A stretch of 21,603 nucleotides of DNA. Origin: a virus (Duplodnaviria; Heunggongvirae; Uroviricota; Caudoviricetes). The notes under the pieces are model-generated. The model was not told the DNA's origin, did no database searches, and saw nothing but the letters and a program-made list of their open reading frames with translations. The first letter of the stretch is position 1. The number at the start of each line of letters is the position of its first letter. The DNA lies in IMG/VR virus record IMGVR_UViG_2778261535_000006, positions 1-21,603 of that record; one strand, 5' to 3'. A program made the translations under genes and the position numbers. This document shows, piece by piece, positions 11,899 to 21,603 of the stretch.

Positions 11899-12185
11899 GC
11901 CTTAATTACCCCCTCTTTCAGCCAGATAACCTGCGTTCTCGCCATACCTTCCAGCGCGCATTCTTTTGCATATCCAGCGTCAACAAAATGCGTGCGACGG
12001 TCGATCTCGTCGTGACAGTCAGAACATGCAATGGTGGCAATAAGGTCTGGCGGTTTAATACCGGTGCCGCACAATCCAGCCAGCCGGATATGTGCCAGTA
12101 CAGACGTTTCAGGATTGCCATTACATACGCCAGGGATTCTTACCTGGCATTCCCGACCACGCGCTGCTTTTCTCAAATCAGCCAT
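11895..12185 (-). CDS. YbcO-like Cys-rich putative nuclease (DUF1364-type)
   Basis: Start taken at ATG 12185 ([32 protein letters not shown]...) with AGGAGG RBS; resembles DLP12 YbcO; Cys/His-rich. Confidence 0.75.
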
Positions 12186-12348
12186 GATTCCTCCTTGCTG
12201 CCAGTCGCAACCATTTTTTATCAACCAGGCTGGCGGTATATCCGAGCAGTGTTGGTATTTCGGATGGCTTCAGCTCAGGTTTACGCTTACGACGATTTGG
12301 TACTCTGTAGATGTGTCCGTTCATGACACGAATAAGCGGTGTAGCCAT
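12178..12348 (-). CDS. ninE: NinE-family protein (56 aa); absent from the ORF track
   Basis: Minus-strand frame ATG 12348 to stop at 12180..12178: [56 protein letters not shown]. Basic, with the W-L-R-L motif of NinE proteins; GGAGG RBS; overlaps the ybcO-like start. Confidence 0.7.
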   Translation of the reverse strand: MATPLIRVMNGHIYRVPNRRKRKPELKPSEIPTLLGYTASLVDKKWLRLAARRNHG

Positions 12349-12803
12349 TACGCCTCCTGCTTGTCGCGCAGCAGCTGGAACTCGCAGCTCTGCGGAATAG
12401 TCAGGTGGCAGCCAATATTCATCGCCCAGGCTTCAACCTTACACAGGAAGACATACATCTCTCCGGTATCAAGATTGGAGGTATGGCGTAACGACTGGAT
12501 AGTAGTAATTTCGCCGGTTACGACATCAACCAGGTCCTTGGTTTCATAACCGAGGTATGTGTGTTTGAGAGCATCTTTAACCCATGCTGCAGTAGCGAAC
12601 GATTTCCCCCTGCTTATGAGGTATTCACTGATTTCGCTGTACCACATGTGGCTAAGTGCATTCTGGGAAAGACTGCGTCTCTCGCGCCACGGTTTAAGCA
12701 CCATGCGAAAGCATTTGCCGTCCTCCAGATAAGGCTGGATCTGCTGACCGATAGCGGTGAAGTTACCGCGATGCAATTTGATACCGTCTTGTGGGAGGTT
12801 CAC
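12348..12803 (-). CDS. ninB: NinB (Orf-family recombination mediator)
   Basis: GTG start with GGAGGTGAAG RBS; [15 protein letters not shown] parallels the lambda NinB RNRSLDQNRKLWA region; nin-region synteny. Confidence 0.75.
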
Positions 12804-12986
12804 GCTTCACCTCCGCAGAGGTCAAACGCAAGATGCAAAGAATCACAGGTGCATTTTTGCATCTGTGAGGGGAGAAGAGAGTTTAGATTGTATGTGCGCA
12901 TAAACGTCCCCGTTTAGCGCAGAAGTCACCGGAGTTGTTCAGGCTCCGATGACATGATTATGGCGAGTTGATTATGGAAAATCAAA

Positions 12987-13190
12987 TTAGTACAAATCAC
13001 CACTGAAGCGTAAATTTTCCAGTTTGTTACGGTGAAAATTGATTTGCTGTGCGATAAAACTTAATCTTTCATGCCCGCTTTCTCCTTGCGAAATCTCAGT
13101 CTCTCTCCGTACTAGATCATCTAGTTGACGCTCATGATCTTCAATTTTTTTTCCTTCCCAATACTTCACGTAAGATTCAAAATCATCCAT
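12987..13190 (-). CDS. Hypothetical small acidic protein (67 aa)
   Basis: ATG 13190 preceded by a strong SD (AGAGGGGGTGA); not lambda-like; lies in a non-lambda insert between ren and ninB. Confidence 0.5.
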   Translation of the reverse strand: MDDFESYVKYWEGKKIEDHERQLDDLVRRETEISQGESGHERLSFIAQQINFHRNKLENLRFSGDLY

Positions 13191-13348
13191 TACTTCACCC
13201 CCTCTTATTTTTAGATATTTTCAAACCCAACAAACCACCTGCAGTGCGTTTGTCAGGCGAGTAAGTGGGGCAGCTTTAAAGTACTAGAATGTTTCATAAA
13301 GACATCCGACTTAACAATGTTCATGGCGCTACTAACTCTCGCACCAGT

Positions 13349-13657
13349 TTAGTAGGTAGTACAACTCATTCCGCCATTTATCGTGGGATTACAATTAGTT
13401 GTAATCGGTCTGTTAGCCGCATCGATAGCTGCCTGCTGAGCTTGCTGCTGTTGAATGGTCTGATTTGCTTGATTAAGGCCAACCTGCATTGCCCCCATAT
13501 CGCGAGCTGCATAGCAAGCGTCACGATCGCCATCATCACACATTGCAGAGACCTGACCGACAGTCTTGAATGCATAACGGCTATGCCACATCGAGCGGGT
13601 GTCACTTGTGCAGCCAGCCAATACTGAAACTGCCACGATCATCATTAAAATTTTCAT
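13349..13657 (-). CDS. Lipoprotein of unknown function (signal peptide + lipobox LAGC; Cys- and Gln-rich)
   Basis: MKILMMIVAVSVLAGCTSD...; flanked by AT-rich non-coding DNA on both sides; occupies the ren-nin junction. Confidence 0.6.
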   Translation of the reverse strand: MKILMMIVAVSVLAGCTSDTRSMWHSRYAFKTVGQVSAMCDDGDRDACYAARDMGAMQVGLNQANQTIQQQQAQQAAIDAANRPITTNCNPTINGGMSCTTY

Positions 13658-13762
13658 TATTGAATACTCTTTATTTTGTAAAAGATACTACTGATTAAAA
13701 TACGCTCAACCCAGATATGGAATTATGATGCTGCTCATCATCTTTGCATATTGAGATTTCCA

Positions 13763-14056
13763 TCACAGTAAATTTTTTCCCCAAACCATCAACACCCGTT
13801 TCATCGCGGCACTCTGGCGACACTCCTTAAAAATCAGGTTAGTGCTCACCTTTCCTTCCCGTTCTTCCCTGGTAGCGAACCTGTAATACACCGTTCGCCA
13901 GACCTTACCATCAATGACCAAGATTCCTGCCCGCGCCATTTTAGCCGCAGCCTGATTTATGCTGGTTACTGTTGCGCCTGTTACCGCAGCAACGTCGTGC
14001 GCACAGAAGCTCTTATGCGTCCCCAGGTAATAAATAATTGCCTCTTTGCCCGTCAT
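13763..14056 (-). CDS. ren: Ren
   Basis: MTGKEAIIYYLGTHKSFCAHDVAAVTGATVTSINQAAAKMARAG...WRTVYYRFATREEREGK is near-identical to lambda Ren as I recall it. Confidence 0.9.
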   Translation of the reverse strand: MTGKEAIIYYLGTHKSFCAHDVAAVTGATVTSINQAAAKMARAGILVIDGKVWRTVYYRFATREEREGKVSTNLIFKECRQSAAMKRVLMVWGKNLL

Positions 14057-14754
14057 ACACTTGCCCCTTTCAGTCCGAACTTAGCTTTGATTTCTGCGAT
14101 CTTCGCCAAAGCCTGTGCACGATTTAGAGGTCTACCGCCCATGACAGGAAGTTGTTTTACTGGTTCAGGTATCGACTCACCACGGTTAATTCGCGCGGTC
14201 ATACAGGCCAGTTCATCGGCAGCCTTGCGCCGTAATTCCGCATCAGTAAGCGCATTGGCCCGCATGTTCTGGTACAGATTGGTAACCAGCCAGTAGTGCG
14301 CGTTTGATTTCCACGGATAAGACTCTGCATCCGGATACAGTCCACGCTTCCGGCAATACTCATAAACCATATCAACAAGCTCGCTGGCGTTTGGCAGCCC
14401 GGCGATAATGGATGCTTCTTCCCGGCACCAGGCGACAAACTGCCCGGGTGATGGCAGGAATGGTCGATTCTGCCGACGGGCTACGCGCATTCCAGCGTTA
14501 ACCTGTTCCATCGTGGTGATCCCATTTTCCCGGAAAGCCAGAACCCACTGGCGGCGGATTTCGTTCAGTTCATTCTGGTCCCGGTTAGCCAGGCTCGCCG
14601 GGAAAGTTGCCAGTAACTGGCTGAACACACCATTGATAATCTGCGCTACCTGCTGTACCTGCGGCTTTTCGTCGTACTGTTCCGGCATGTTATTGGCGAT
14701 CCGGCGCATCTGCTCACGGTCAAAATTAACCATCTGTGCGGCGATGTTTTTCAT
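14053..14754 (-). CDS. P: Replication protein P (DnaB helicase loader)
   Basis: MKNIAAQMVNFDREQMRRIANNMPEQYDEKPQVQQVAQIINGVFSQL... is essentially lambda P over its full 233 aa. Confidence 0.95.
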   Translation of the reverse strand: MKNIAAQMVNFDREQMRRIANNMPEQYDEKPQVQQVAQIINGVFSQLLATFPASLANRDQNELNEIRRQWVLAFRENGITTMEQVNAGMRVARRQNRPFLPSPGQFVAWCREEASIIAGLPNASELVDMVYEYCRKRGLYPDAESYPWKSNAHYWLVTNLYQNMRANALTDAELRRKAADELACMTARINRGESIPEPVKQLPVMGGRPLNRAQALAKIAEIKAKFGLKGASV

Positions 14755-15680
14755 AGCTCCACCCCGTAAATCCAGTCAGTGTTCGTCAGGTCGAGTTTTG
14801 GTTTTCCGGCTGTCACGCCAGCCTGTTGCTTGTTACGGTTGATTTCGAGCTGGGTCCACTTGTCGCGTAGTTTGGCCGGACTCAGCACGTTACCGGACCA
14901 GAAGTTGTCCTGGCAGGCCCAGCGGAACAGCACGCACATGTCGCGGTGGTTACGTCCGTCACGTTCACGCATCAGGCGGATATCGTTAGCCCACCCTGCA
15001 AAATTCGGTTTTCTGGCTGAAGGCGCGATGGTCTTCACCATGTCAAACATCCACTCTGCGGCGGTCAGGTCTTCTGCTGTCCCCCACTTGCTGCCGCTCT
15101 GAATCGCAGCATCCGGTTTCACCACAGGAAGAGCATTTTCTGGCTGGTCAGAGGATTCGTCAGAATTCTCGGACGAAAAAGGTTTTATATTGTCTTTTGT
15201 TAGTTTGTCTTTTGTATTTACCTGATTCGGGTAAGTGCGTTTACCTGATTTGGGTAAACTTTTTTTACCTGATTCAGGTAAATTTACCTCTTTCAGGTAA
15301 ACTTTATTTTTCTTACCTGATTCGGGTAATGTTGACCATTCACTGACCACATTATTAATGCCGATATTCCGCCCGCTCTGAATAAAAATCCCACGCTTTA
15401 CCAGAACACTTTTTGCAGCAGAACACTTGTGCGGCAATATCCCGGTCAACTCGGAAAGTTGCTCGTTGCTCACCCAATCCAGTTTTTTATTAAAGCCATA
15501 TGTTTTGCGCATGACAGCCAGGAAGACCAGAAGCTGGTGCTGTGTTAATCCGGCCAGCATTACAGCTTCCAGCAACTCATTTGCAATGCGCGTATAACCA
15601 TCATCGAGATCTGCCACGCGCGGCTCCTTTTGTGCCGCATCCGGCACTGGAAAATTGAATATCTCAGCAGTGTTTGCCAT
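14751..15680 (-). CDS. O: Replication initiator O
   Basis: Start taken at ATG 15680 (MANTAEIFNF...RVADLDDGY...) with GGGAGG RBS, not the track start at 15770. N-terminal region and C-terminal ...DWIYGVEL match lambda O; iterons lie inside the gene. Confidence 0.85.
   Translation of the reverse strand: MANTAEIFNFPVPDAAQKEPRVADLDDGYTRIANELLEAVMLAGLTQHQLLVFLAVMRKTYGFNKKLDWVSNEQLSELTGILPHKCSAAKSVLVKRGIFIQSGRNIGINNVVSEWSTLPESGKKNKVYLKEVNLPESGKKSLPKSGKRTYPNQVNTKDKLTKDNIKPFSSENSDESSDQPENALPVVKPDAAIQSGSKWGTAEDLTAAEWMFDMVKTIAPSARKPNFAGWANDIRLMRERDGRNHRDMCVLFRWACQDNFWSGNVLSPAKLRDKWTQLEINRNKQQAGVTAGKPKLDLTNTDWIYGVEL
15218..15329. repeat. Origin iterons (ori-lambda-like) inside O
   Basis: Five ~17-bp repeats TTACCTGATTCGGGTAA (15218), TTACCTGATTTGGGTAA (15241), TTACCTGATTCAGGTAA (15265), TTACCTCTTTCAGGTAA (15284), TTACCTGATTCGGGTAA (15313), each with TTACC/GGTAA symmetry, next to an AT-rich tract at 15181..15217. 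Confidence 0.75.
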
Positions 15681-15766
15681 AATTCCTCCCGCAATGAGTG
15701 TGTTACGATTTGCACCTGAAAGTCGGTTCTGTTCCCGCAGACCGACTTTCGCCATTTTTGAACCTG

Positions 15767-16306
15767 TCATATTGCCCCCAGCATGGTGGTGACCATCGCC
15801 ATCAATGGACCAGCCAGATCCGGGTCCACTCGAAACATCGACACAATGCCTTCACTCATCTCCTTCAGTTTCTGGTGGCGTGGTGCGTTGAGAATGACCG
15901 CCTGCTTTGCCTCACTGAGTTCCTTTTCCATTTCAGCCAGCCGAGCCATGAAGCTATCCTGCTCAACCAGGTGGCCGCGATATTCCAGCGGTAGTACCGC
16001 CAGAATTGCCGGGGTCAGTTCACGCACGTTATTTCGGTATTTTTCAGAATCGAATTTGTTATCGAGGAAGCGGAACAGCTTCTGGCGTGCACGACTGACA
16101 TCATCAGGAAAATCGATGGTGCCGCCGCCCTGTGCTCGATACTCATTCACAATGAGTGCGGCAACTACATCCTGATTATCTTCAGCAGACCAGGCGCGGA
16201 CGGCATCACGAATTTTTTCGTGGCCTGGCACCTGTTTTATTTGAGAACGATTTATCACCGCAGTCGGGCTAAATCCGCTAGTCTGTTGGTATGTAAGTGG
16301 TTGCAT
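15767..16306 (-). CDS. YdaT-like protein in the cII position
   Basis: Lies between the cro-like gene and O. Motifs EYRAQGGG and LTPAILAVLPLEYRGHL resemble what I recall of Rac prophage YdaT; unverified. Start taken at the second ATG (16306). Confidence 0.45.
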   Translation of the reverse strand: MQPLTYQQTSGFSPTAVINRSQIKQVPGHEKIRDAVRAWSAEDNQDVVAALIVNEYRAQGGGTIDFPDDVSRARQKLFRFLDNKFDSEKYRNNVRELTPAILAVLPLEYRGHLVEQDSFMARLAEMEKELSEAKQAVILNAPRHQKLKEMSEGIVSMFRVDPDLAGPLMAMVTTMLGAI

Positions 16307-16336
16307 AATCATCGCCTTATCAGTTAACGCCGCAGA

Positions 16337-16564
16337 TTAGGCGGCAGAATTACTCGCGTTAAACAATGGTGCGAGGTCGGGACGAATATCTGCTGGCTTA
16401 ATCTTTCCACCAGTGGCTGAGACAATTTTCATTACATAGCGGGCATCAATTCCGCCACCGTGTAGCCAACGCCAAACAGTGGGCTGGGCTACACCGCATA
16501 GATCTGCCAGTCGTTTTTGACTACCTGTAATACTGATTGCGAGTTGAATGGTTTGATTTGTCAT
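16337..16564 (-). CDS. Cro-like / YdaS-like small HTH regulator
   Basis: ~75 aa, helix-turn-helix-like LADLCGVAQPTVWRW, divergent from the repressor gene across an operator-bearing region; start taken at ATG 16564 with AGGA RBS. Confidence 0.6.
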   Translation of the reverse strand: MTNQTIQLAISITGSQKRLADLCGVAQPTVWRWLHGGGIDARYVMKIVSATGGKIKPADIRPDLAPLFNASNSAA

Positions 16565-16595
16565 TATCAATTCCTATTGGTATTACAATGAATGA

Positions 16596-16624
16596 ATAAT
16601 AGCAATGCGTATTAACCATGGCAA
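16596..16624 (-). promoter_or_regulatory. Putative pR (early rightward-equivalent promoter driving the cro-like operon)
   Basis: Minus strand: -35 TTGCCA (16624..16619), 17-nt spacer, -10 TATTAT (16601..16596), ~30 nt upstream of the cro-like start; overlapped by a palindromic operator candidate. Confidence 0.5.
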
Positions 16625-16662
16625 TAGCAAAACGTGTTTTGACCATCAATACGCAAGCGTAT
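16598..16662. promoter_or_regulatory. OR-like operator cluster between the cro-like and repressor genes
   Basis: Imperfect palindromes TAATAGCAATGCGTATTA (16598..16615) and ATACGCAAGCGTAT (16649..16662) plus AATAGCAA at 16623..16630; the same AATAGCAAT motif recurs at the OL-like site. Confidence 0.4.
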
Positions 16663-16674
16663 AAATTAAAACTT

Positions 16675-17367
16675 ATGAAAAAAGAAACTCTTGCTGATCG
16701 CTTAAACCTAGCGATGGAACAATCTGGGATGTCTCAAGGCGCTCTTGCAAAGGCGTCTGGCGTAGCTCAACCCACAATCTGGAGACTGACAAGCGGCAAC
16801 GCGCGCGGCTCAACAAAAATTGTTGAAATAGCTAATGCATTGGGTGTTCGAACAGAGTGGCTCTCATCAGGCATAGGCCCGATGAGAAATGACGGTCAAC
16901 AATCAGGGAAGCCTACTGTCAACCATTCCAAATACTTCAAGATTGACGTTCTTGATATAGAAGTGAGTGCCGGGCCGGGAGTCATCAACCGTGAGTTTGT
17001 AGAAGTCCTACGCTCGGTTGAGTACTCGTTTGACGATGCTCGTCACATGTTCGATGGCAGGAAGGCGGAAAATATCCGCATCATTAACGTGCGTGGTGAC
17101 AGCATGTCAGGAACGATCGAACCAGGTGATCTGCTGTTCGTTGATATCACGGTTAAATCTTTCGACGGTGATGGCATCTATGCGTTTCTGTACGACGACA
17201 CCGCCCATGTAAAGCGCCTGCAAATGATGAAGGATAAGCTGCTGGTTATCTCTGATAACAAGAGCTACTCACCGTGGGACCCGATCGAGAAAGACGAGAT
17301 GAACCGGGTGTTCATCTTCGGTAAGGTTATTGGGAGCATGCCCCAGACGTACAGGAAACATGGATAA
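16675..17367 (+). CDS. CI-like prophage repressor (N-terminal HTH, C-terminal S24 LexA-like autopeptidase)
   Basis: HTH MSQGALAKASGVAQPTIWRL; peptidase motifs GDSM (Ser) and HVKRLQ (Lys). Start uncertain: ATG 16675 (MKKETLADRL...) has no SD and may be leaderless, whereas the track start 16618 lies inside the putative pR -35. Confidence 0.8.
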   Translation: MKKETLADRLNLAMEQSGMSQGALAKASGVAQPTIWRLTSGNARGSTKIVEIANALGVRTEWLSSGIGPMRNDGQQSGKPTVNHSKYFKIDVLDIEVSAGPGVINREFVEVLRSVEYSFDDARHMFDGRKAENIRIINVRGDSMSGTIEPGDLLFVDITVKSFDGDGIYAFLYDDTAHVKRLQMMKDKLLVISDNKSYSPWDPIEKDEMNRVFIFGKVIGSMPQTYRKHG

Positions 17368-17433
17368 TCAGTACTGTGCTGATGAGTCGTTTAGGGGATA
17401 GTAAATTTAATTAGAATTAGACGAGAGCGATTT

Positions 17434-18297
17434 ATGGATTGTGACGCTTTACAGGATATAAAAATCTCTCTTAGGTATGACGGAAAAGATGCTTTAAATC
17501 ATGAAATAGATTTGAACTGCCTAGGAGAATCCCTAAAGGGTTTTTCTAAAGTTCTCTCAACAGCAGCTTCTTTCTCTGTTACACAAAAATATAGTAAATA
17601 CATTAATTATCAGGAAGTTAAGGTTTACGCACGCGAAGCAAAAGCTAACTGCTTTACTCTTGAAGCAGTTCTTAACTTCGCCACTCAGAACCAGTTGTTC
17701 TCGGGGATCGCCGCAACTATACTTGGCGCAATACTACAATATATTTTTGCGAGAAATTCTAACAAGAAAGATGAAATGAAAGCTTTGCAGCAGTCACTTG
17801 AAAAGGCCATAGAGGCACTAGGAAACAAGGATGCTGGAACCATTGATAAGTTGATCTCTTTGATTGACCGAATGGCTGTAGAGCTTCGCCCCTCTGTAAG
17901 GCAGGCAGTATCACCTATTGGTAATACTTGCGATCAGATAAGTGTTGCAACAAATGTTGACGGCTGCCTTCTAAAAGTTAACGAGAGAGATAAAGCTGAA
18001 ATTGATAGGCTTGATGATGATGAAGTTCTCGGTCTTCGTGAGTATCGTGCTTTTCTTACAGAATTTGATGCACAAAATATGACAGCTAAAATAATTTTAG
18101 ATGGTGATGACTCAAAAAAGAGAATCACTGCTGAAATTAGCGATCCAGCTGCAGGAAAGAAGAATAACCCGTATATTAGAGCTCTTAGTGCATATATATC
18201 AACCAAAGGTGATCCATCTGCAGTATTCACTATAACCGCAAAGGCTACTGTTAAAAAAGGCCAGATAAACAGGTTATTTATTGTAGATGCGAAATGA
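17434..18297 (+). CDS. Hypothetical 287-aa protein, AT-rich, in the rexAB position downstream of the repressor
   Basis: Clean ORF with its own terminator; one central hydrophobic segment ([19 protein letters not shown]) followed by a predicted helical Lys/Glu-rich region; no motif I recognise. Spot counts on three 60-nt lines give 40%, 42% and 28% GC. Confidence 0.7.
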
Positions 18298-18301
18298 TTT
18301 C

Positions 18302-18328
18302 CCCGGCCGTCGTGCCGGGTTTTCTTTT
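18302..18328 (+). terminator. Intrinsic terminator ending the repressor operon
   Basis: CCCGGC-cgtcgt-GCCGGG followed by TTTTCTTTT, 5 nt after the stop codon of the 287-aa gene. Confidence 0.65.
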
Positions 18329-18450
18329 GCCTCCCCTCATCACACACCGTTCAAAAAACCACCATAACCCCCGCTTCAGTTATCGCTATGCGATGCAAGT
18401 CACAAAATTAATTCCTTTTGCTATCAAACAGTTAATATCAAAATGCATCA

Positions 18451-18496
18451 ATCAATAGCAATAAGTATTGATATCACTAATAGCAATAGCTATTAT
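18451..18496 (+). promoter_or_regulatory. Putative pL with OL-like operators
   Basis: -35 TTGATA (18468..18473), 17-nt spacer, -10 TATTAT (18491..18496). Palindromes TAATAGC-aata-GCTATTA (18478..18495) and ATCAATA-gcaataag-TATTGAT (18451..18472) overlap the promoter. Confidence 0.5.
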
Positions 18497-18773
18497 CACC
18501 ATGTCGCAACAACACAACGATACGGCAACCACCTGATTCGCCGTTGCGATGACCGCTTAGATCCGCAGCTTGAATTTCAGCAGGCTCCGGGGAGTGCGAG
18601 GGGTGAAGCGGACGCGTGAACGTCGGTGTGACCAGCTGAAATCAACTCAACACTTCATACCTCAGTCGCTTCAACGAGGCGGCTTAGTTATGACAACCGG
18701 CGGCCATCCACCGCCTGAATACGCGCAGAAGTCTCTATATGTTCAGCAGCCCAGCTTACGGGCAGGAGTTTTT

Positions 18774-18980
18774 ATGGTTCATCAACATTACGGAACTCAG
18801 ACCGTTAATCGCGGTGCCGTCCGGCCAGGTATGCTGGTTAAACACAAAGATGGTACCTGGACGGCATCAGCTAATTTGCGCGGTCGGCTTTACTTGCATC
18901 GCGGCATCGAACGAACGTACACAAAAGATTTGCTCGTGGAGGTTTACCTGAATGGTACTGGCGGTGGTCTGAGCCACTAA
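18774..18980 (+). CDS. Hypothetical 68-aa protein; the frame is open back to a TTG at 18570 with an Arg-rich N-terminus
   Basis: ATG 18774 has a strong RBS (GCAGGAG, 6 nt). The upstream in-frame extension encodes RLRGVRGVKRTRERR, reminiscent of an N-type arginine-rich motif, but the start codon is unproven. Confidence 0.35.
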   Translation: MVHQHYGTQTVNRGAVRPGMLVKHKDGTWTASANLRGRLYLHRGIERTYTKDLLVEVYLNGTGGGLSH

Positions 18981-18984
18981 CTAC

Positions 18985-19291
18985 TCACTTGTTTGGGCCG
19001 TGTGGAGCCAAAGCAAATTCAAGGTTGTAGATACTCCCATCAGGGGCTTTGAAATCAACCTCAAACCGAGATGGCGGATTGAATGGATCGAGTACATTTT
19101 CTGCTACGCATGTAGATCTCCAATTGATATGGCCTTTGCCAAGCGAGCGAGATTCCCACCAAGCTCTCCAGGTCTGGTCTTGCGGTTGATCACTCCCCTT
19201 TTCCCTTACATACCAATGATTCTTTTTCGACTGCTTACCCATTTCTGCGGTTGGGTACATCGGAGAAGACTTTAACTTATCAATCAGCATT
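18985..19291 (-). CDS. Hypothetical Trp-rich protein (~101 aa) antisense to the pL operon
   Basis: ATG 19291 with AAGGTG 7 nt upstream; reads more like a protein than the overlapping plus-strand ORF 19000..19275; no family recognised. Confidence 0.4.
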
Positions 19292-19428
19292 CTAGACACC
19301 TTATTTATCAGATTTTGAGCAAGACATAGTGTGATCCAACATTTTGATTAATCAAGCGAGTTCATTCAAACAACTATGCAGTTAACGCACTGTCTGGATC
19401 CGCACATCAAAATTTCAGGAGTTTATCC

Positions 19429-19725
19429 ATGAACGCTTATTACATTCAGGATCGTCTTGAGGCTCAGAGCTGGGCGCGTCACTACCAGCAGATCGCCCGT
19501 GAAGAGAAAGAGGCAGAACTGGCAGACGACATGGAAAAAGGCCTGCCCCAGCACCTGTTTGAATCGCTATGCATCGATCATTTGCAACGCCACGGGGCCA
19601 GCAAAAAAGCCATTACCCGTGCGTTTGATGACGATGTTGAGTTTCAGGAGCGCATGGCAGAACACATCCAGTACATGGTTGAAACCATTGCTCACCACCA
19701 GGTTGATATTGATTCAGAGGTATAA
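19429..19725 (+). CDS. gam: Gam (RecBCD inhibitor), short form
   Basis: [60 protein letters not shown]... matches the lambda Gam C-terminal 98 aa; CAGGAG RBS. Confidence 0.95.
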
Positions 19726-19730
19726 AACGG

Positions 19731-20516
19731 ATGAGTACAGCACTCGCAACGCTGGCAGGGAAGCTGGCTGAACGTGTCGGCATGGATTCTGTCGACCCAC
19801 AGGAACTGATCACCACTCTTCGCCAGACGGCATTTAAAGGTGATGCCAGCGATGCGCAGTTCATCGCATTGTTGATCGTCGCCAACCAGTACGGCCTTAA
19901 TCCGTGGACGAAAGAAATTTACGCCTTCCCTGATAAGCAGAACGGCATCGTTCCGGTGGTGGGCGTTGATGGCTGGTCCCGCATCATCAATGAAAACCAG
20001 CAGTTTGATGGCATGGACTTTGAGCAGGACAATGAATCCTGTACATGCCGGATTTACCGCAAGGACCGTAATCATCCGATCTGCGTTACCGAATGGATGG
20101 ATGAATGCCGCCGCGAACCATTCAAAACTCGCGAAGGCAGAGAAATCACGGGGCCGTGGCAGTCGCATCCCAAACGGATGTTACGGCATAAAGCCATGAT
20201 TCAGTGTGCCCGTCTGGCCTTCGGATTTGCTGGTATCTATGACAAGGATGAAGCCGAGCGCATTGTCGAAAATACTGCATACACTGCAGAACGTCAGCCA
20301 GAACGCGACATCACTCCGGTTAACGATGAAACCATGCAGGAGATTAACACTCTGCTGATCGCCCTGGATAAAACATGGGATGACGACTTATTGCCGCTCT
20401 GTTCCCAGATATTTCGCCGCGACATTCGCGCATCGTCAGAACTGACACAGGCCGAAGCAGTGAAAGCTCTTGGATTCCTGAAACAGAAAGCCACTGAGCA
20501 GAAGGTGGCAGCATGA
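19731..20516 (+). CDS. bet: Bet (Red-beta single-strand annealing protein)
   Basis: [66 protein letters not shown]... matches lambda Bet, 261 aa. Confidence 0.95.
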
Positions 20517-21193
20517 CACCGGACATTATCCTGCAGCGTACCGGGATCGACGTGAGAGCTGTCGAACAGGGGGATGATGCATGGCACAAATTACGGCTCG
20601 GCGTCATCACCGCTTCAGAAGTTCACAACGTGATAGCAAAGCCCCGCTCAGGAAAGAAGTGGCCTGACATGAAAATGTCCTACTTCCACACCCTGCTGGC
20701 TGAGGTTTGCACCGGTGTGGCTCCGGAAGTTAATGCTAAGGCGCTGGCCTGGGGAAAACAGTACGAGAACGACGCCAGAACCCTGTTTGAATTCACTTCC
20801 GGCGTGAATGTTACTGAATCCCCGATCATCTATCGCGACGAAAGTATGCGCACCGCCTGCTCTCCCGATGGTTTATGCAGTGACGGCAACGGCCTTGAAC
20901 TGAAATGCCCGTTTACCTCCCGGGATTTCATGAAGTTCCGGCTCGGTGGTTTCGAGGCCATAAAATCGGCTTACATGGCCCAGGTGCAGTACAGCATGTG
21001 GGTGACGCGAAAAGATGCCTGGTACTTTGCCAACTATGACCCGCGTATGAAGCGTGAAGGCCTGCATTATGTCGTGATTGAGCGGAATGAAAAGTACATG
21101 GCGAATTTTGACGAGATGGTGCCGGAGTTCATCGAAAAAATGGACGTGGCACTGGCTGAAATTGGTTTTGTATTTGGGGAGCAATGGCGATGA
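20513..21193 (+). CDS. exo: Exo (Red-alpha 5'-3' exonuclease)
   Basis: [65 protein letters not shown]... matches lambda Exo, 226 aa; ATGA overlap with bet. Confidence 0.95.
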
Positions 21194-21372
21194 AGCATCC
21201 TCACGATAATATCCGGGTAGGCGCGATCACTTTCATCTACTCCGTTACAAAGCGAGGCTGGGTATTTCCCGGCCTTTCTGTTATCAGAAATCCACTGAAA
21301 GCACAGCGGCTGGCTGAGGCGATAAATAATAAACGGGAGGCGGTATGCACAAAGCATCTCCTGTTGAGTTAA
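21190..21372 (+). CDS. lambda orf60a-like protein
   Basis: [59 protein letters not shown] matches lambda orf60a as I recall it. Confidence 0.8.
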
Positions 21373-21536
21373 GAACGAGTATTGAGATGGCACATAGCCT
21401 TGCTCAAATTGGAGTCAGGTTTGTGCCAATACCAGTAGAAACAGACGAAGAATTTCATACGTTAGCCACATCCCTTTCACAAAAGCTGGAAATGATGGTG
21501 GCGAAAGCAGAAGCAGATGAGAGAGACCAGGTATGA
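21345..21536 (+). CDS. lambda orf63-like protein
   Basis: [61 protein letters not shown] matches lambda orf63 as I recall it. Confidence 0.8.
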   Translation: MHKASPVELRTSIEMAHSLAQIGVRFVPIPVETDEEFHTLATSLSQKLEMMVAKAEADERDQV

Positions 21537-21603
21537 CAACCACTGAATGCATTTTTCTGGCAGCGGGCTTCATATTCTGTGTGCTTATGCTTGCCGACAT
21601 GGG
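21533..21603 (+). CDS. lambda orf61-like protein, N-terminal fragment (continues beyond window)
   Basis: ATG 21533 overlaps the orf63 stop (ATGA); MTTTECIFLAAGFIFCVLMLADMG is hydrophobic and in the expected position after orf63. Confidence 0.5.
   Translation, partial: MTTTECIFLAAGFIFCVLMLADM

Follow-up and report, generated by a model that had tools for sequence, protein, structure and literature searches.

The window, by which we mean the whole 21,603-nt stretch of viral DNA analysed here, encodes a CI-type repressor and, divergently from it, a Cro-like regulator, a YdaT-like protein, the replication proteins O and P, and Ren. The YdaT-like gene is positioned after the cro analogue and before the replication genes, an order that is also found in phi80 and HK639 (ORF map and domain matches). 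None of the CI, Cro-like and YdaT-like genes has nucleotide similarity to lambda (blastn), as the initial annotation had proposed for this immunity region.

Repressor, operators and Cro-like gene

The repressor (16675..17367, + strand) combines an HTH domain with an S24 autopeptidase (Pfam Peptidase_S24, 1.6e-18; HTH_3, 1.5e-6) and matches PHROG 4, 'transcriptional repressor' (3.8e-69), in agreement with the LexA-type CI expected from the initial annotation. Its ORF is open from 16618, with the ATG at 16675 as the probable start, and the protein is 23% identical to phi80 CI and 24% identical to lambda CI. Back-to-back promoter-like sites lie upstream, in a putative OR region spanning both strands at 16596..16667: the promoter scan returned a pR-like site on the − strand (TTGCCA/17/TATTAT, 16624->16596) and a pRM-like site on the + strand (TTGACC/17/TAAATT, 16639-16667). 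These are consensus matches to which we assign a putative promoter function, and the putative pRM would yield a nearly leaderless cI mRNA. An operator-like palindrome, TAATAGCAATGCGTATTA, is located at 16597-16614, and the operator pattern search detected a perfect second copy of it at a pL-like site (18478-18495).

The Cro-like regulator (16337..16564, − strand) is a 75-aa protein of the YdaS family (Pfam YdaS_toxin, PF15943, 1e-14, 54.5 bits against a cut-off of 30) that also matches PHROG 35, 'transcriptional repressor' (9.4e-24), and it is annotated as Cro in phages that are 96-97% identical. The gene is the first of the rightward operon, adjoining the operators and with the pR-like site directly upstream. 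As listed, its ORF begins at a TTG at 16570; the ATG at 16564 is preceded 7 nt upstream by an AGGA Shine-Dalgarno sequence. The cro stop codon sits in the loop of a hairpin visible in the sequence, GCCGC-N7-GCGGC (16329..16345, − strand), which is not followed by a T-run and which recurs, with N6 or N7, at the cro/cII junction of ~16/61 related loci and of phi80. An assignment of this hairpin as nutR boxB was unsupported, as the annotated phi80 nutL core is CACGTAAACGTG and no second copy was detected after pL in the window. A repeat pairing 16283-16309 with 16574-16600 (70% identical) was dropped as a probable chance match. [quoted passage not shown]

Antisense RNA and replication genes

Between the stop codon of the YdaT-like gene and the start of O, we identified a candidate oop/M3-like antisense RNA of ~70 nt (15655..15759, + strand), comprising a promoter-like site (15655-15683), a hairpin (15718-15750) and a T-run (15755-15759). 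The element folds at -31 kcal/mol (z -2.9), and its position aligns with that of phi80 M3, an RNA annotated as 'homolog of lambda oop RNA', and with that of the HK639 M3-like RNA. An Rfam scan of 12000-21603 at E<=1 returned a spurious miRNA match only, leaving the oop-like element and the hairpins without a known family.

The replication genes were described initially as near-identical to those of lambda. This holds for P (14053..14754, − strand; 97% identical at the amino acid level; Pfam Phage_lambda_P, 9.8e-62), for Ren (13763..14056, − strand; 89% identical) and for the C-terminal ~145 residues of O (~97%), but not for the N-terminal ~155 residues of O, which are ~40% identical to lambda O in the global alignment. 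The O gene (14751..15680, − strand; Pfam Phage_rep_O, 8.6e-34) probably starts at 15680 (MANTAEIF, with GGAGG upstream). Its origin contains five non-lambda iterons, TTACCYRAATCAGGTAA, at 15218-15329 (5 sites against 0.19 expected; iteron search), and neither the lambda iteron-binding N-terminal domain nor the lambda iterons are present in O of the window. The only blastn match to lambda extends over 13790..15215 (lambda 39121..40546, 93.3% nucleotide identity), which places the mosaic junction at ~15215, inside O and adjoining the last iteron, rather than between the cII-position gene and O (15680..15770) as first suggested. The junction with lambda is the classical one, inside O at the origin. 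O is a mosaic with a non-lambda origin-binding half and a P-binding half that, together with P and ren, is lambda-like, so that the prophage combines an origin specificity unlike that of lambda with the P-interaction domain of lambda.

A YdaT-family protein in the position of cII

The gene in the cII position (15767..16306, − strand) encodes a phi80-type CII of 179 aa that belongs to the YdaT family, an assignment based on Pfam, PHROG, identity to phi80 and predicted fold. Position 15767 is the low coordinate of its TGA stop codon (15767-15769). The 179-aa start was chosen because homologues begin at the second ATG. Both a ~75-aa HTH protein and a ~180-aa protein with QGGG and PAILAVLP motifs had been noticed initially, with a resemblance to YdaS and YdaT of the Rac prophage that both HMM searches and the predicted fold bear out. 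Pfam assigns the larger protein to YdaT_toxin (PF06254; 8.4e-30, 103.5 bits, cut-off 21), and its PHROG match is PHROG 163, 'CII-like transcriptional activator', at 1e-66. YdaT_toxin was the only family returned by the Pfam scan, with no lambda-type CII; NCBIfam had no model matching the protein; and a blastp comparison with lambda CII gave no match at E<=10, as anticipated. In contrast, phi80 cII is 66% identical over its full length, and in ~16 sequenced lambdoid phage genomes of the phage database, genes annotated as cII are 95-98% identical. The gene is also already named in RefSeq.

An AlphaFold2 (AF2) model of the protein (pLDDT 77) has helices at residues 31-45, 47-60, 72-84, 90-106 and 109-115 and a long helix at 121-140, while residues 1-26 (1-28 in the 181-aa numbering of the model) are predicted to be disordered. 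According to the model, the protein is a POU-like five-helix HTH followed by a long oligomerisation helix, with two extra C-terminal helices. Foldseek returned PDB entries 3c4r and 8bt1 as the top matches (probability 1.0, TM 0.65-0.68), and these were the only PDB matches below E 0.4. Members of the ~180-aa subfamily all share an unchanged recognition helix, SRARQKLFRFLDN, and its Arg is retained in at least 90% of 34 aligned members. Within it, QKLFRFLD aligns with QKIFRWLD of 8bt1, spanning the conserved Arg (Arg60 in CP-933P, R57 in Rac).

Proteins of the YdaT type form tetramers with 222 symmetry and recognise inverted repeats (PMC9986795), and those of CP-933P and Rac have been shown experimentally to be transcription factors activating leftward transcription of the repressor (PMC8630535, PMC9986795, PMC11879457). 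By analogy, we infer that the YdaT-type CII of the window acts as a tetramer that binds its box and activates leftward repressor transcription. The question raised initially, whether such proteins are toxins or CII analogues, is largely settled for the YdaT family in favour of the CII analogue by the identity to phi80 cII, by the presence of the gene in sequenced lambdoid phage genomes and by the published work on CP-933P and Rac.

A predicted leftward promoter inside the YdaT-like gene

Conservation among related loci points to a CII-dependent leftward promoter, analogous to lambda pRE, within codons 1-22 of the YdaT-like gene (16241..16291, + strand). Here, a candidate YdaT box, TTGAGAACGATTTATCAC, is positioned at 16241-16258 on the antisense strand (codons 17-22) and is separated by a 20-nt spacer from a -10-like hexamer, TAGTCT (16279-16284). 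Transcription initiating near 16291, as the geometry predicts, would centre the box at -41.5.

The position of this box is conserved in 62/62 unique related sequences, in all of which its cores GA and ATCA are invariant, as are the T, A and T of a TAYTnT hexamer 20 nt away. The cores are kept as TGA...ATCA on the + strand and TGAT...TCA on the coding strand, and TGA, TCA and TAnnnT do not change although the encoded amino acids vary. Codon 9, for example, encodes eight different amino acids, every time with a codon ending in T. Only five third-codon positions are invariant in the whole gene, and the three non-trivial ones fall within the box and -10 elements. In 60 related loci, which are homologous and hence not independent samples, 10/16 box matches with <=1 mismatch occur at codons 17-22, against ~4 in total in shuffled sequence. 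Site conservation and geometry were computed directly, as were homology, fold and gene order; the promoter activity predicted from them is putative.

The same geometry is seen in Rac, where the box is followed after 20 nt by TATGAT, and with a spacing of 21 nt in Tritos (TAGTTT) and Kp4882-1 (TATCAT). In the window itself, the internal box is degenerate, with two mismatches to TTGATW-N6-WATCAA and four to the CP-933P box, and the -10 TAGTCT is weak. The generic promoter scan did not call the internal leftward promoter, and the literature search returned no older phi80 work on cII-dependent promoters.

The PHROG 163 profile begins at residue 17 of the protein, suggesting that translation could start at codon 17 in some members. 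If so, the internal box would overlap the start codon as in Rac and would not be intragenic.

Further candidate boxes at cro and upstream of ninB

Two exact matches to TTGATW-N6-WATCAA are present in the 21.6 kb, against ~0.005-0.05 expected, while the equivalent 9 kb of lambda has no box with <=1 mismatch. The first, TTGATAATGACAAATCAA (16553..16570, read on the − strand), is a predicted YdaT/CII box over the start of cro, with the cro ATG in its 6-nt spacer, and lies at about +20..+37 from the predicted pR start. It has one mismatch to the CP-933P box TTGATT-N6-AATCAA and none to TTGATW-N6-WATCAA, an occurrence expected ~0.05 times in the window. This box is shared with PhiR30_1 and is absent from phi80, HK639, CobraSix and mEp237; it could be a feature restricted to this immunity type or a chance occurrence.

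The second, TTGATTTTCCATAATCAA, is a perfect candidate box at 12968-12985 (− strand; element 12957..12985), with no mismatch to TTGATT-N6-AATCAA (~0.001 expected). A rightward promoter-like site (TTGATT/17/CATAAT) lies ~165 bp upstream of a ninB-like gene, and the box overlaps its -35 and spacer. The box followed by 4 nt and CCATAAT is kept upstream of ninB in phi80, HK639 and CobraSix, with the variant CCACAAT in L014, whereas PhiR30_1 has a perfect box at the equivalent place but no CCATAAT after it. The phage 82 record (X92588) lists the -35 and -10 of this promoter as putative. All of the complete phage genomes that share the ninB-upstream segment (18/18) also carry a phi80-type cII. The comparative result points to a second CII target upstream of ninB, although the direction of regulation there is a guess. 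Single-mismatch boxes at 19709-19726 (gam stop/bet Shine-Dalgarno) and in the Q gene of Tritos were rejected as within chance expectation.

Relationship to known lysogeny switches

Among the closest known systems is phi80, whose cII (PHI80_49, JX871397) encodes the same ~180-aa type of protein and whose gene order is shared: cI, a gene 40A/DUF7946 homologue, a cro-like gene, cII, M3 (oop-like) RNA, an O-like gene and a P-like gene. The position of the internal box and the box with CCATAAT upstream of the ninB-like gene are also shared. However, CI and Cro are only 23% and 34% identical, respectively, indicating that immunity specificity and operators differ; O and P of the window, mosaics of lambda and other sequence, share 43-48% identity with phi80 genes 15 and 14; and phi80 has no box over the cro start.

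YdaT of CP-933P (PDB 8bt1; homologue 3c4r) belongs to the same Pfam family, is likewise encoded between a cro analogue and the replication genes (PMC8630535) and binds the same type of box, TTGATT-N6-AATCAA (PMC9986795), and the predicted fold of the window protein superposes on it. The identity is nevertheless only 27%. The window CII has ~28 extra N-terminal residues, predicted to be disordered and translated across the box/promoter region, and ~40 extra C-terminal residues predicted to form two helices. Phages of the CP-933P type, unlike the window, have the box over the start codon. For CP-933P itself, published work puts the box downstream of PRE (PMC9986795), a layout that differs from the promoter predicted here.

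Rac YdaT (E. coli K-12 b1358) has the QGGG and PAILA(V/I)LP motifs in common with the window CII, and its box, ATGATT-N6-AATCAA, stands in identical geometry to the -10-like hexamer. It differs in its length of 141 aa and in that its box spans the start codon; moreover, the Rac prophage is defective, its repressor is not an S24 protein and a host target, rcsA, is described for Rac only (PMC11879457). Rac YdaT also binds the repressor-cro intergenic region (PMC11879457).

Lambda CII has the same operon position and the same putative job, followed likewise by an oop-type antisense RNA. Like pRE, the predicted promoter is leftward, lies within the 5′ end of the gene for its own activator and has a -35 region that overlaps the activator's binding site. 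In contrast, lambda CII has no sequence similarity to the window CII and binds direct repeats, TTGC-N6-TTGC.

Proposed switch and alternative explanations

We consider it probable (about 0.75) that the immunity and early-right region of this lambdoid prophage is a phi80-type regulatory set with a CII-activated, leftward, pRE-like switch. The set would consist of an S24 CI repressor, a YdaS-family Cro and a YdaT-family CII in place of lambda CII, along with the oop/M3-like antisense RNA and the mosaic O gene. After infection, pR would transcribe cro, ydaT, O and P. The YdaT-type CII, which from its CP-933P and Rac homologues we infer to be a tetramer with POU-like HTH domains, would bind inverted repeats of the type TTGATW-N6-WATCAA. 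Bound at 16241-16258, centred -41.5 from the start set by TAnnnT (16279-16284) on the opposite strand, it would activate leftward transcription through cro into cI and so establish repression, as lambda pRE does. The 16553-16570 box at the cro start might impede expression of cro, or the tetramer might use its second DNA-binding face to bring this box together with the first. The 12968-12985 box, placed over the -35 and spacer upstream of ninB, probably lowers rightward transcription toward Q, an effect that would be functionally comparable to that of lambda paQ. Binding, activation and repression at the boxes are all predicted from homologues and site placement.

A different arrangement is conceivable, in which the protein is a CII analogue but TAnnnT is not a promoter, and CII either activates, from afar, a reverse promoter within the cro-like gene or is mainly a repressor or roadblock. 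In Rac, the YdaT-dependent promoter has been placed at PracR4, ~190 bp from the box, with 29-fold activation assigned to it (PMC11879457); the tetramer from CP-933P engages two DNA duplexes and might loop the DNA (PMC9986795); and the two perfect boxes, at the cro start and over a -35, occupy positions typical of repression. We nonetheless regard this arrangement as unlikely, since it offers no easy account of why all 62 sequences keep T, A and T 20 nt from the box while the amino acids encoded there vary, and the promoter scan found no + strand promoter-like site within 16337-16564. In the accessible sections of the Rac study, PracR4 is a predicted promoter, the reporter also held the box-adjacent TATGAT, and a mutated PracR4 -35 is not reported for the YdaT-induction assay (PMC11879457).

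It is very improbable that the module is left over from a decayed prophage, its switch no longer working and its sequence features relics. Many of the E. coli copies reside in prophages of uncertain viability, and the internal box and -10 of the window are weaker than the family consensus; however, the ORFs are all intact, complete sequenced phage genomes match the region at 96-97.5% identity, and PhiR30_1 shares the cro-start box and has a perfect box upstream of ninB.

Finally, we give almost no credence to the idea, suggested by the 2017 Rac papers and by the Pfam names YdaS_toxin and YdaT_toxin, that the two genes are a toxin-antitoxin pair or two toxins, with the repressor serving to silence them: overexpression of Rac YdaS and YdaT is toxic (PMC5700377, PMC5700373, PMC11879457), but so is overproduction of lambda CII (PMC5917428), in CP-933P YdaT lacks toxicity and does not form a TA pair with YdaS (PMC8630535), the YdaT-like protein has a predicted DNA-binding HTH fold and fills the slot of cII in sequenced lambdoid phages, and neither protein has a significant PADLOC match (weak mad1 only, for the Cro-like HTH; 4.6e-4, 25 residues).

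Implications

It is a useful correction that the Cro-like and YdaT-like genes encode not a toxin pair but lysogeny regulators of the phi80 Cro/CII type, which were known before. The literature and existing annotation already cover the gene family, its CII-like function and its occurrence in lambdoid phages, and the identification mostly alters nothing in current knowledge. Most of the module is present in 717/5426 complete E. coli genomes.

For the broader proposal, we see even odds: that YdaT-family CII proteins use a conserved class-II-type promoter, with the box at ~-41.5 relative to an antisense TAnnnT, across which the phi80-type reading frame has been extended by ~28 codons upstream, with activation in Rac coming from the adjacent promoter and with a second target at ninB. 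The comparative result on the box/-10 geometry offers phage geneticists a precise promoter prediction, testable by a single base change, and suggests re-reading the Rac data: if the proposal is true, the box-adjacent promoter would be the source of the activation that has been attributed in print to PracR4, 190 bp away. The DNA encoding the predicted disordered N-terminal peptide would then owe its fixed sequence to promoter function, and phi80-type CII would have a small regulon, analogous to lambda pRE and paQ.

Organization of the early region

The ORF map places the early-right operon of this lambdoid prophage on the minus strand of the window. It encodes a 75-aa cro-like HTH protein (16337..16564, −; Pfam YdaS_toxin, 54.5 bits, cut-off 30), a 179-aa YdaT-like protein (15767..16306, −; Pfam YdaT_toxin, 103.5 bits, cut-off 21, E value 8.4e-30) and, beyond an 86-bp gap, O (14751..15680, −), P (14053..14754, −) and Ren (13763..14056, −). 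The divergent repressor (16675..17367, +; ORF open from 16618) carries HTH_3 and Peptidase_S24 domains (Pfam), and the promoter scan and operator pattern search located the operator/promoter region at ~16596-16667. A pRM-like site (TTGACC/17/TAAATT, 16639..16677, +) has a predicted start at ~16674, one base ahead of the cI ATG (16675); cI mRNA from this site would be leaderless, as in λ.

The position of rexAB, between the repressor gene and pL/OL, is taken by a gene for a 287-aa DUF7946 + DUF7947 protein (17434..18297, +; PHROG 5147, function unknown; only a weak PADLOC match, PDC-S42, 1.5e-4), followed by a terminator-like hairpin (18302-18319). φ80 gene 40A shares 68 % nucleotide identity with this gene, which may be expressed from the prophage for exclusion or defence. 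A pL-like promoter (TTGATA/17/TATTAT, 18468-18496, +; region 18400..19000) contains a perfect operator palindrome, TAATAGCAATAGCTATTA (18478-18495). No recognizable N gene was found downstream of it (18400..19000); since the related phage HK639 uses a put-type antiterminator RNA in place of N, this prophage may do likewise.

Identity of the YdaT-like gene

The initial annotation, which likened a protein with QGGG and PAILAVLP motifs to Rac YdaS/YdaT, was right to recognize non-λ YdaS-like and YdaT-like genes: both motifs are present in the 179-aa protein, both Pfam families were matched and BLASTp returned no match to λ CII. tBLASTn against phage genomes revealed 95–98 % identical genes in ~16 sequenced lambdoid phages (including PhiR30_1, 4A7, Lambda_4C10, D2, 1W, 3W and Perceval), nearly all annotated cII. 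The protein is 66 % identical to φ80 cII and 53–73 % identical to cII of HK639, HK225, mEp237 and CobraSix, and PHROGs assigns it to phrog_163, 'CII-like transcriptional activator' (1e-66). Gene order agrees with the annotated φ80 map (cI, gene 40A, cro-like, cII, M3 RNA, O-like and P-like). The PHROG profile starts at residue 17, and for this reason some family members may begin translation there.

An AlphaFold2 model (34 homologues, pLDDT 77) has a disordered N terminus (residues 1–28) and five helices, followed by a long helix (121–140) and two extra C-terminal helices. Only two PDB entries, both of them YdaT structures, scored below E 0.4 in Foldseek (3c4r and 8bt1; probability 1.0, TM 0.65–0.68, 27 % identity). 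In a library of 50 %-identity cluster representatives, only 111 clusters matched at E ≤ 0.001; Enterobacteriaceae commonly carry the ~180-aa form. Among 5426 complete E. coli genomes, 2304 carry some part of the module and 717 most of it, several copies being 100 % identical.

In RefSeq it is called 'toxin YdaT domain-containing protein', and for the gene the initial annotation had left its role between toxin and CII analogue. The φ80 cII identity and phrog_163 favour the latter; a toxin reading of the YdaS/YdaT-like genes is very unlikely, and CP-933P YdaT is not a member of a toxin–antitoxin pair (PMC8630535). That protein is a stated homologue of φ80 CII and turns on leftward transcription from a PRE-like promoter (PMC8630535); in the crystal it forms a tetramer with POU-like HTH domains, which binds TTGATT-N6-AATCAA (PMC9986795). 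Both Casjens and Jobling had put forward YdaS and YdaT as Cro and CII analogues (PMC5917428). The observation is therefore real and the family assignment correct, identifying a feature of a known kind that is already annotated.

The λ junction lies within O

The initial annotation described O, P and ren as near-identical to λ, with a junction at 15680..15770. This description holds for P (97 % protein identity), Ren (89 %) and the last ~145 residues of O (~97 %), but not for the first ~155 residues of O (~40 %). The proposed limits correspond to the probable O start codon (15680) and the YdaT-like stop codon (15767-15769, low coordinate 15767), whereas the BLASTn match to λ is confined to 13790..15215 (λ 39121..40546, 93.3 %). 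Five palindromic iterons, TTACCYRAATCAGGTAA, unlike those of λ, lie within O at 15218-15329 (0.19 expected by chance). λ homology starts three bases past the last of these; in λ it likewise begins directly after iteron 4. Together, the BLASTn limit, the chimeric O and the iteron position place the breakpoint inside O, at the origin. By sequence, the prophage pairs a predicted non-λ origin specificity with a λ-type O C-terminal domain, P and ren.

Between the YdaT-like stop and the O start are the elements of a putative oop/M3-like RNA on the plus strand: a promoter-like site (15655-15683, promoter scan), a strong predicted hairpin (15718-15750) and a T-run (15755-15759). Their position aligns with that of φ80 M3 RNA ('homolog of lambda oop RNA') and of an M3-like RNA in HK639. 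A further hairpin, GCCGC-CTAATCT-GCGGC (16329..16345, −), lacks a T-run and encloses the stop codon of cro within its loop; φ80 and ~16 other loci share it at their cro/cII junctions, with loops of 6 or 7 nt.

Two small ORFs lie between ren and ninB (12987..13190, −, 67 aa; 13349..13657, −, 102 aa), neither with a Pfam or PHROG match. The 102-aa product has a hydrophobic start followed by Cys (VLAGC) and is lipoprotein-like by eye. The equivalent segment of PhiR30_1 differs.

Candidate CII-binding sites

The window was searched with the CP-933P box (TTGATT-N6-AATCAA) because the recognition helix, SRARQKLFRFLDN, invariant within the ~180-aa subfamily, is close to QKIFRWLD of CP-933P YdaT. A perfect box lies upstream of the ninB-like gene (12968-12985) and a one-mismatch box at the cro start (16553-16570), with the ATG within its spacer. 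Both are exact under TTGATW-N6-WATCAA (~0.005–0.05 expected by chance); the equivalent 9 kb of λ has none with ≤1 mismatch. The cro-start box was not found in φ80, HK639, CobraSix or mEp237. Another one-mismatch box, TTGATTCAGAGGTATAAA (19709..19726), at the gam stop/bet ribosome-binding site and shared with PhiR30_1, is probably due to chance.

A rightward promoter-like site (TTGATT/17/CATAAT) lies ~165 bp ahead of the ninB-like gene, and the perfect box there overlaps both its −35 and its spacer. In φ80 (TTGATAAAACACTATCAA), HK639 and CobraSix, the box is followed by CCATAAT at the same place, and in L014, a Citrobacter prophage, by a variant of it, CCACAAT; in PhiR30_1 the box at this position is perfect, with no CCATAAT behind it. 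These hexamers are annotated as putative −35 and −10 elements in an old record of phage 82. The 187-bp segment is shared by 18 complete phage genomes, each of which also has a φ80-type cII. We infer that CII binding here lowers rightward transcription toward Q, the sign being a guess.

A conserved box and predicted leftward promoter within the gene

Conservation was assessed across 60-odd related loci drawn from other enterobacterial genomes; these loci are homologous and not independent. Of their 16 boxes with at most one mismatch, ten coincide at codons 17–22 of the gene; shuffled sequence gave ~4 boxes in total. Across the alignment of all loci, TGAT and TCA are invariant here while the encoded peptides vary (MINRAQ, MIYQNR, LISQNQ, LIFENQ, VISNYQ and others). 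Only five third-codon positions are invariant in the whole gene (codons 1, 9, 17, 21 and 39); the three not forced by Met/Trp all lie within the first 21 codons, and the box TGA is the sole invariant run of at least three nucleotides.

On the antisense strand, 62 unique sequences have the box, exactly 20 nt and TAYTnT, the T, A and T of which are invariant (62/62). Codon 9, which gives the hexamer A, encodes eight different amino acids with T-ending codons throughout; this conservation carries the apparent signature of a −10 element. With the box centre predicted at −41.5, the arrangement would be that of a class-II activator at a promoter whose −35 is poor. The window's internal box (16241-16258, +) and predicted −10 (TAGTCT, 16279-16284, +) are weaker than the family consensus; transcription from the predicted start near 16291 (+) would read through cro toward cI.

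Similar geometry was seen in three clades of shorter, 141-aa proteins. E. coli K-12 Rac (L076 1030..1095, antisense strand) has the box TTGATTTTCATGAATCAT, exactly 20 nt and TATGAT; Tritos (CP-933P type) has a box, 21 nt and TAGTTT; and Kp4882-1 a box, 21 nt and TATCAT. In the Rac study (PMC11879457), Rac YdaT binds ATGATT-N6-AATCAA spanning its own start codon and also the racR-ydaS intergenic region, and increases racR expression. The study places the activation at PracR4, about 190 bp away and itself a predicted promoter; as described there, the reporter also included the box-adjacent TATGAT, a putative −10 element that the paper does not discuss. Promoter assignments in the window and its relatives are predictions from conservation. 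Together with the box upstream of ninB, the conserved geometry of box and −10 is a modest addition to what is known of this family.
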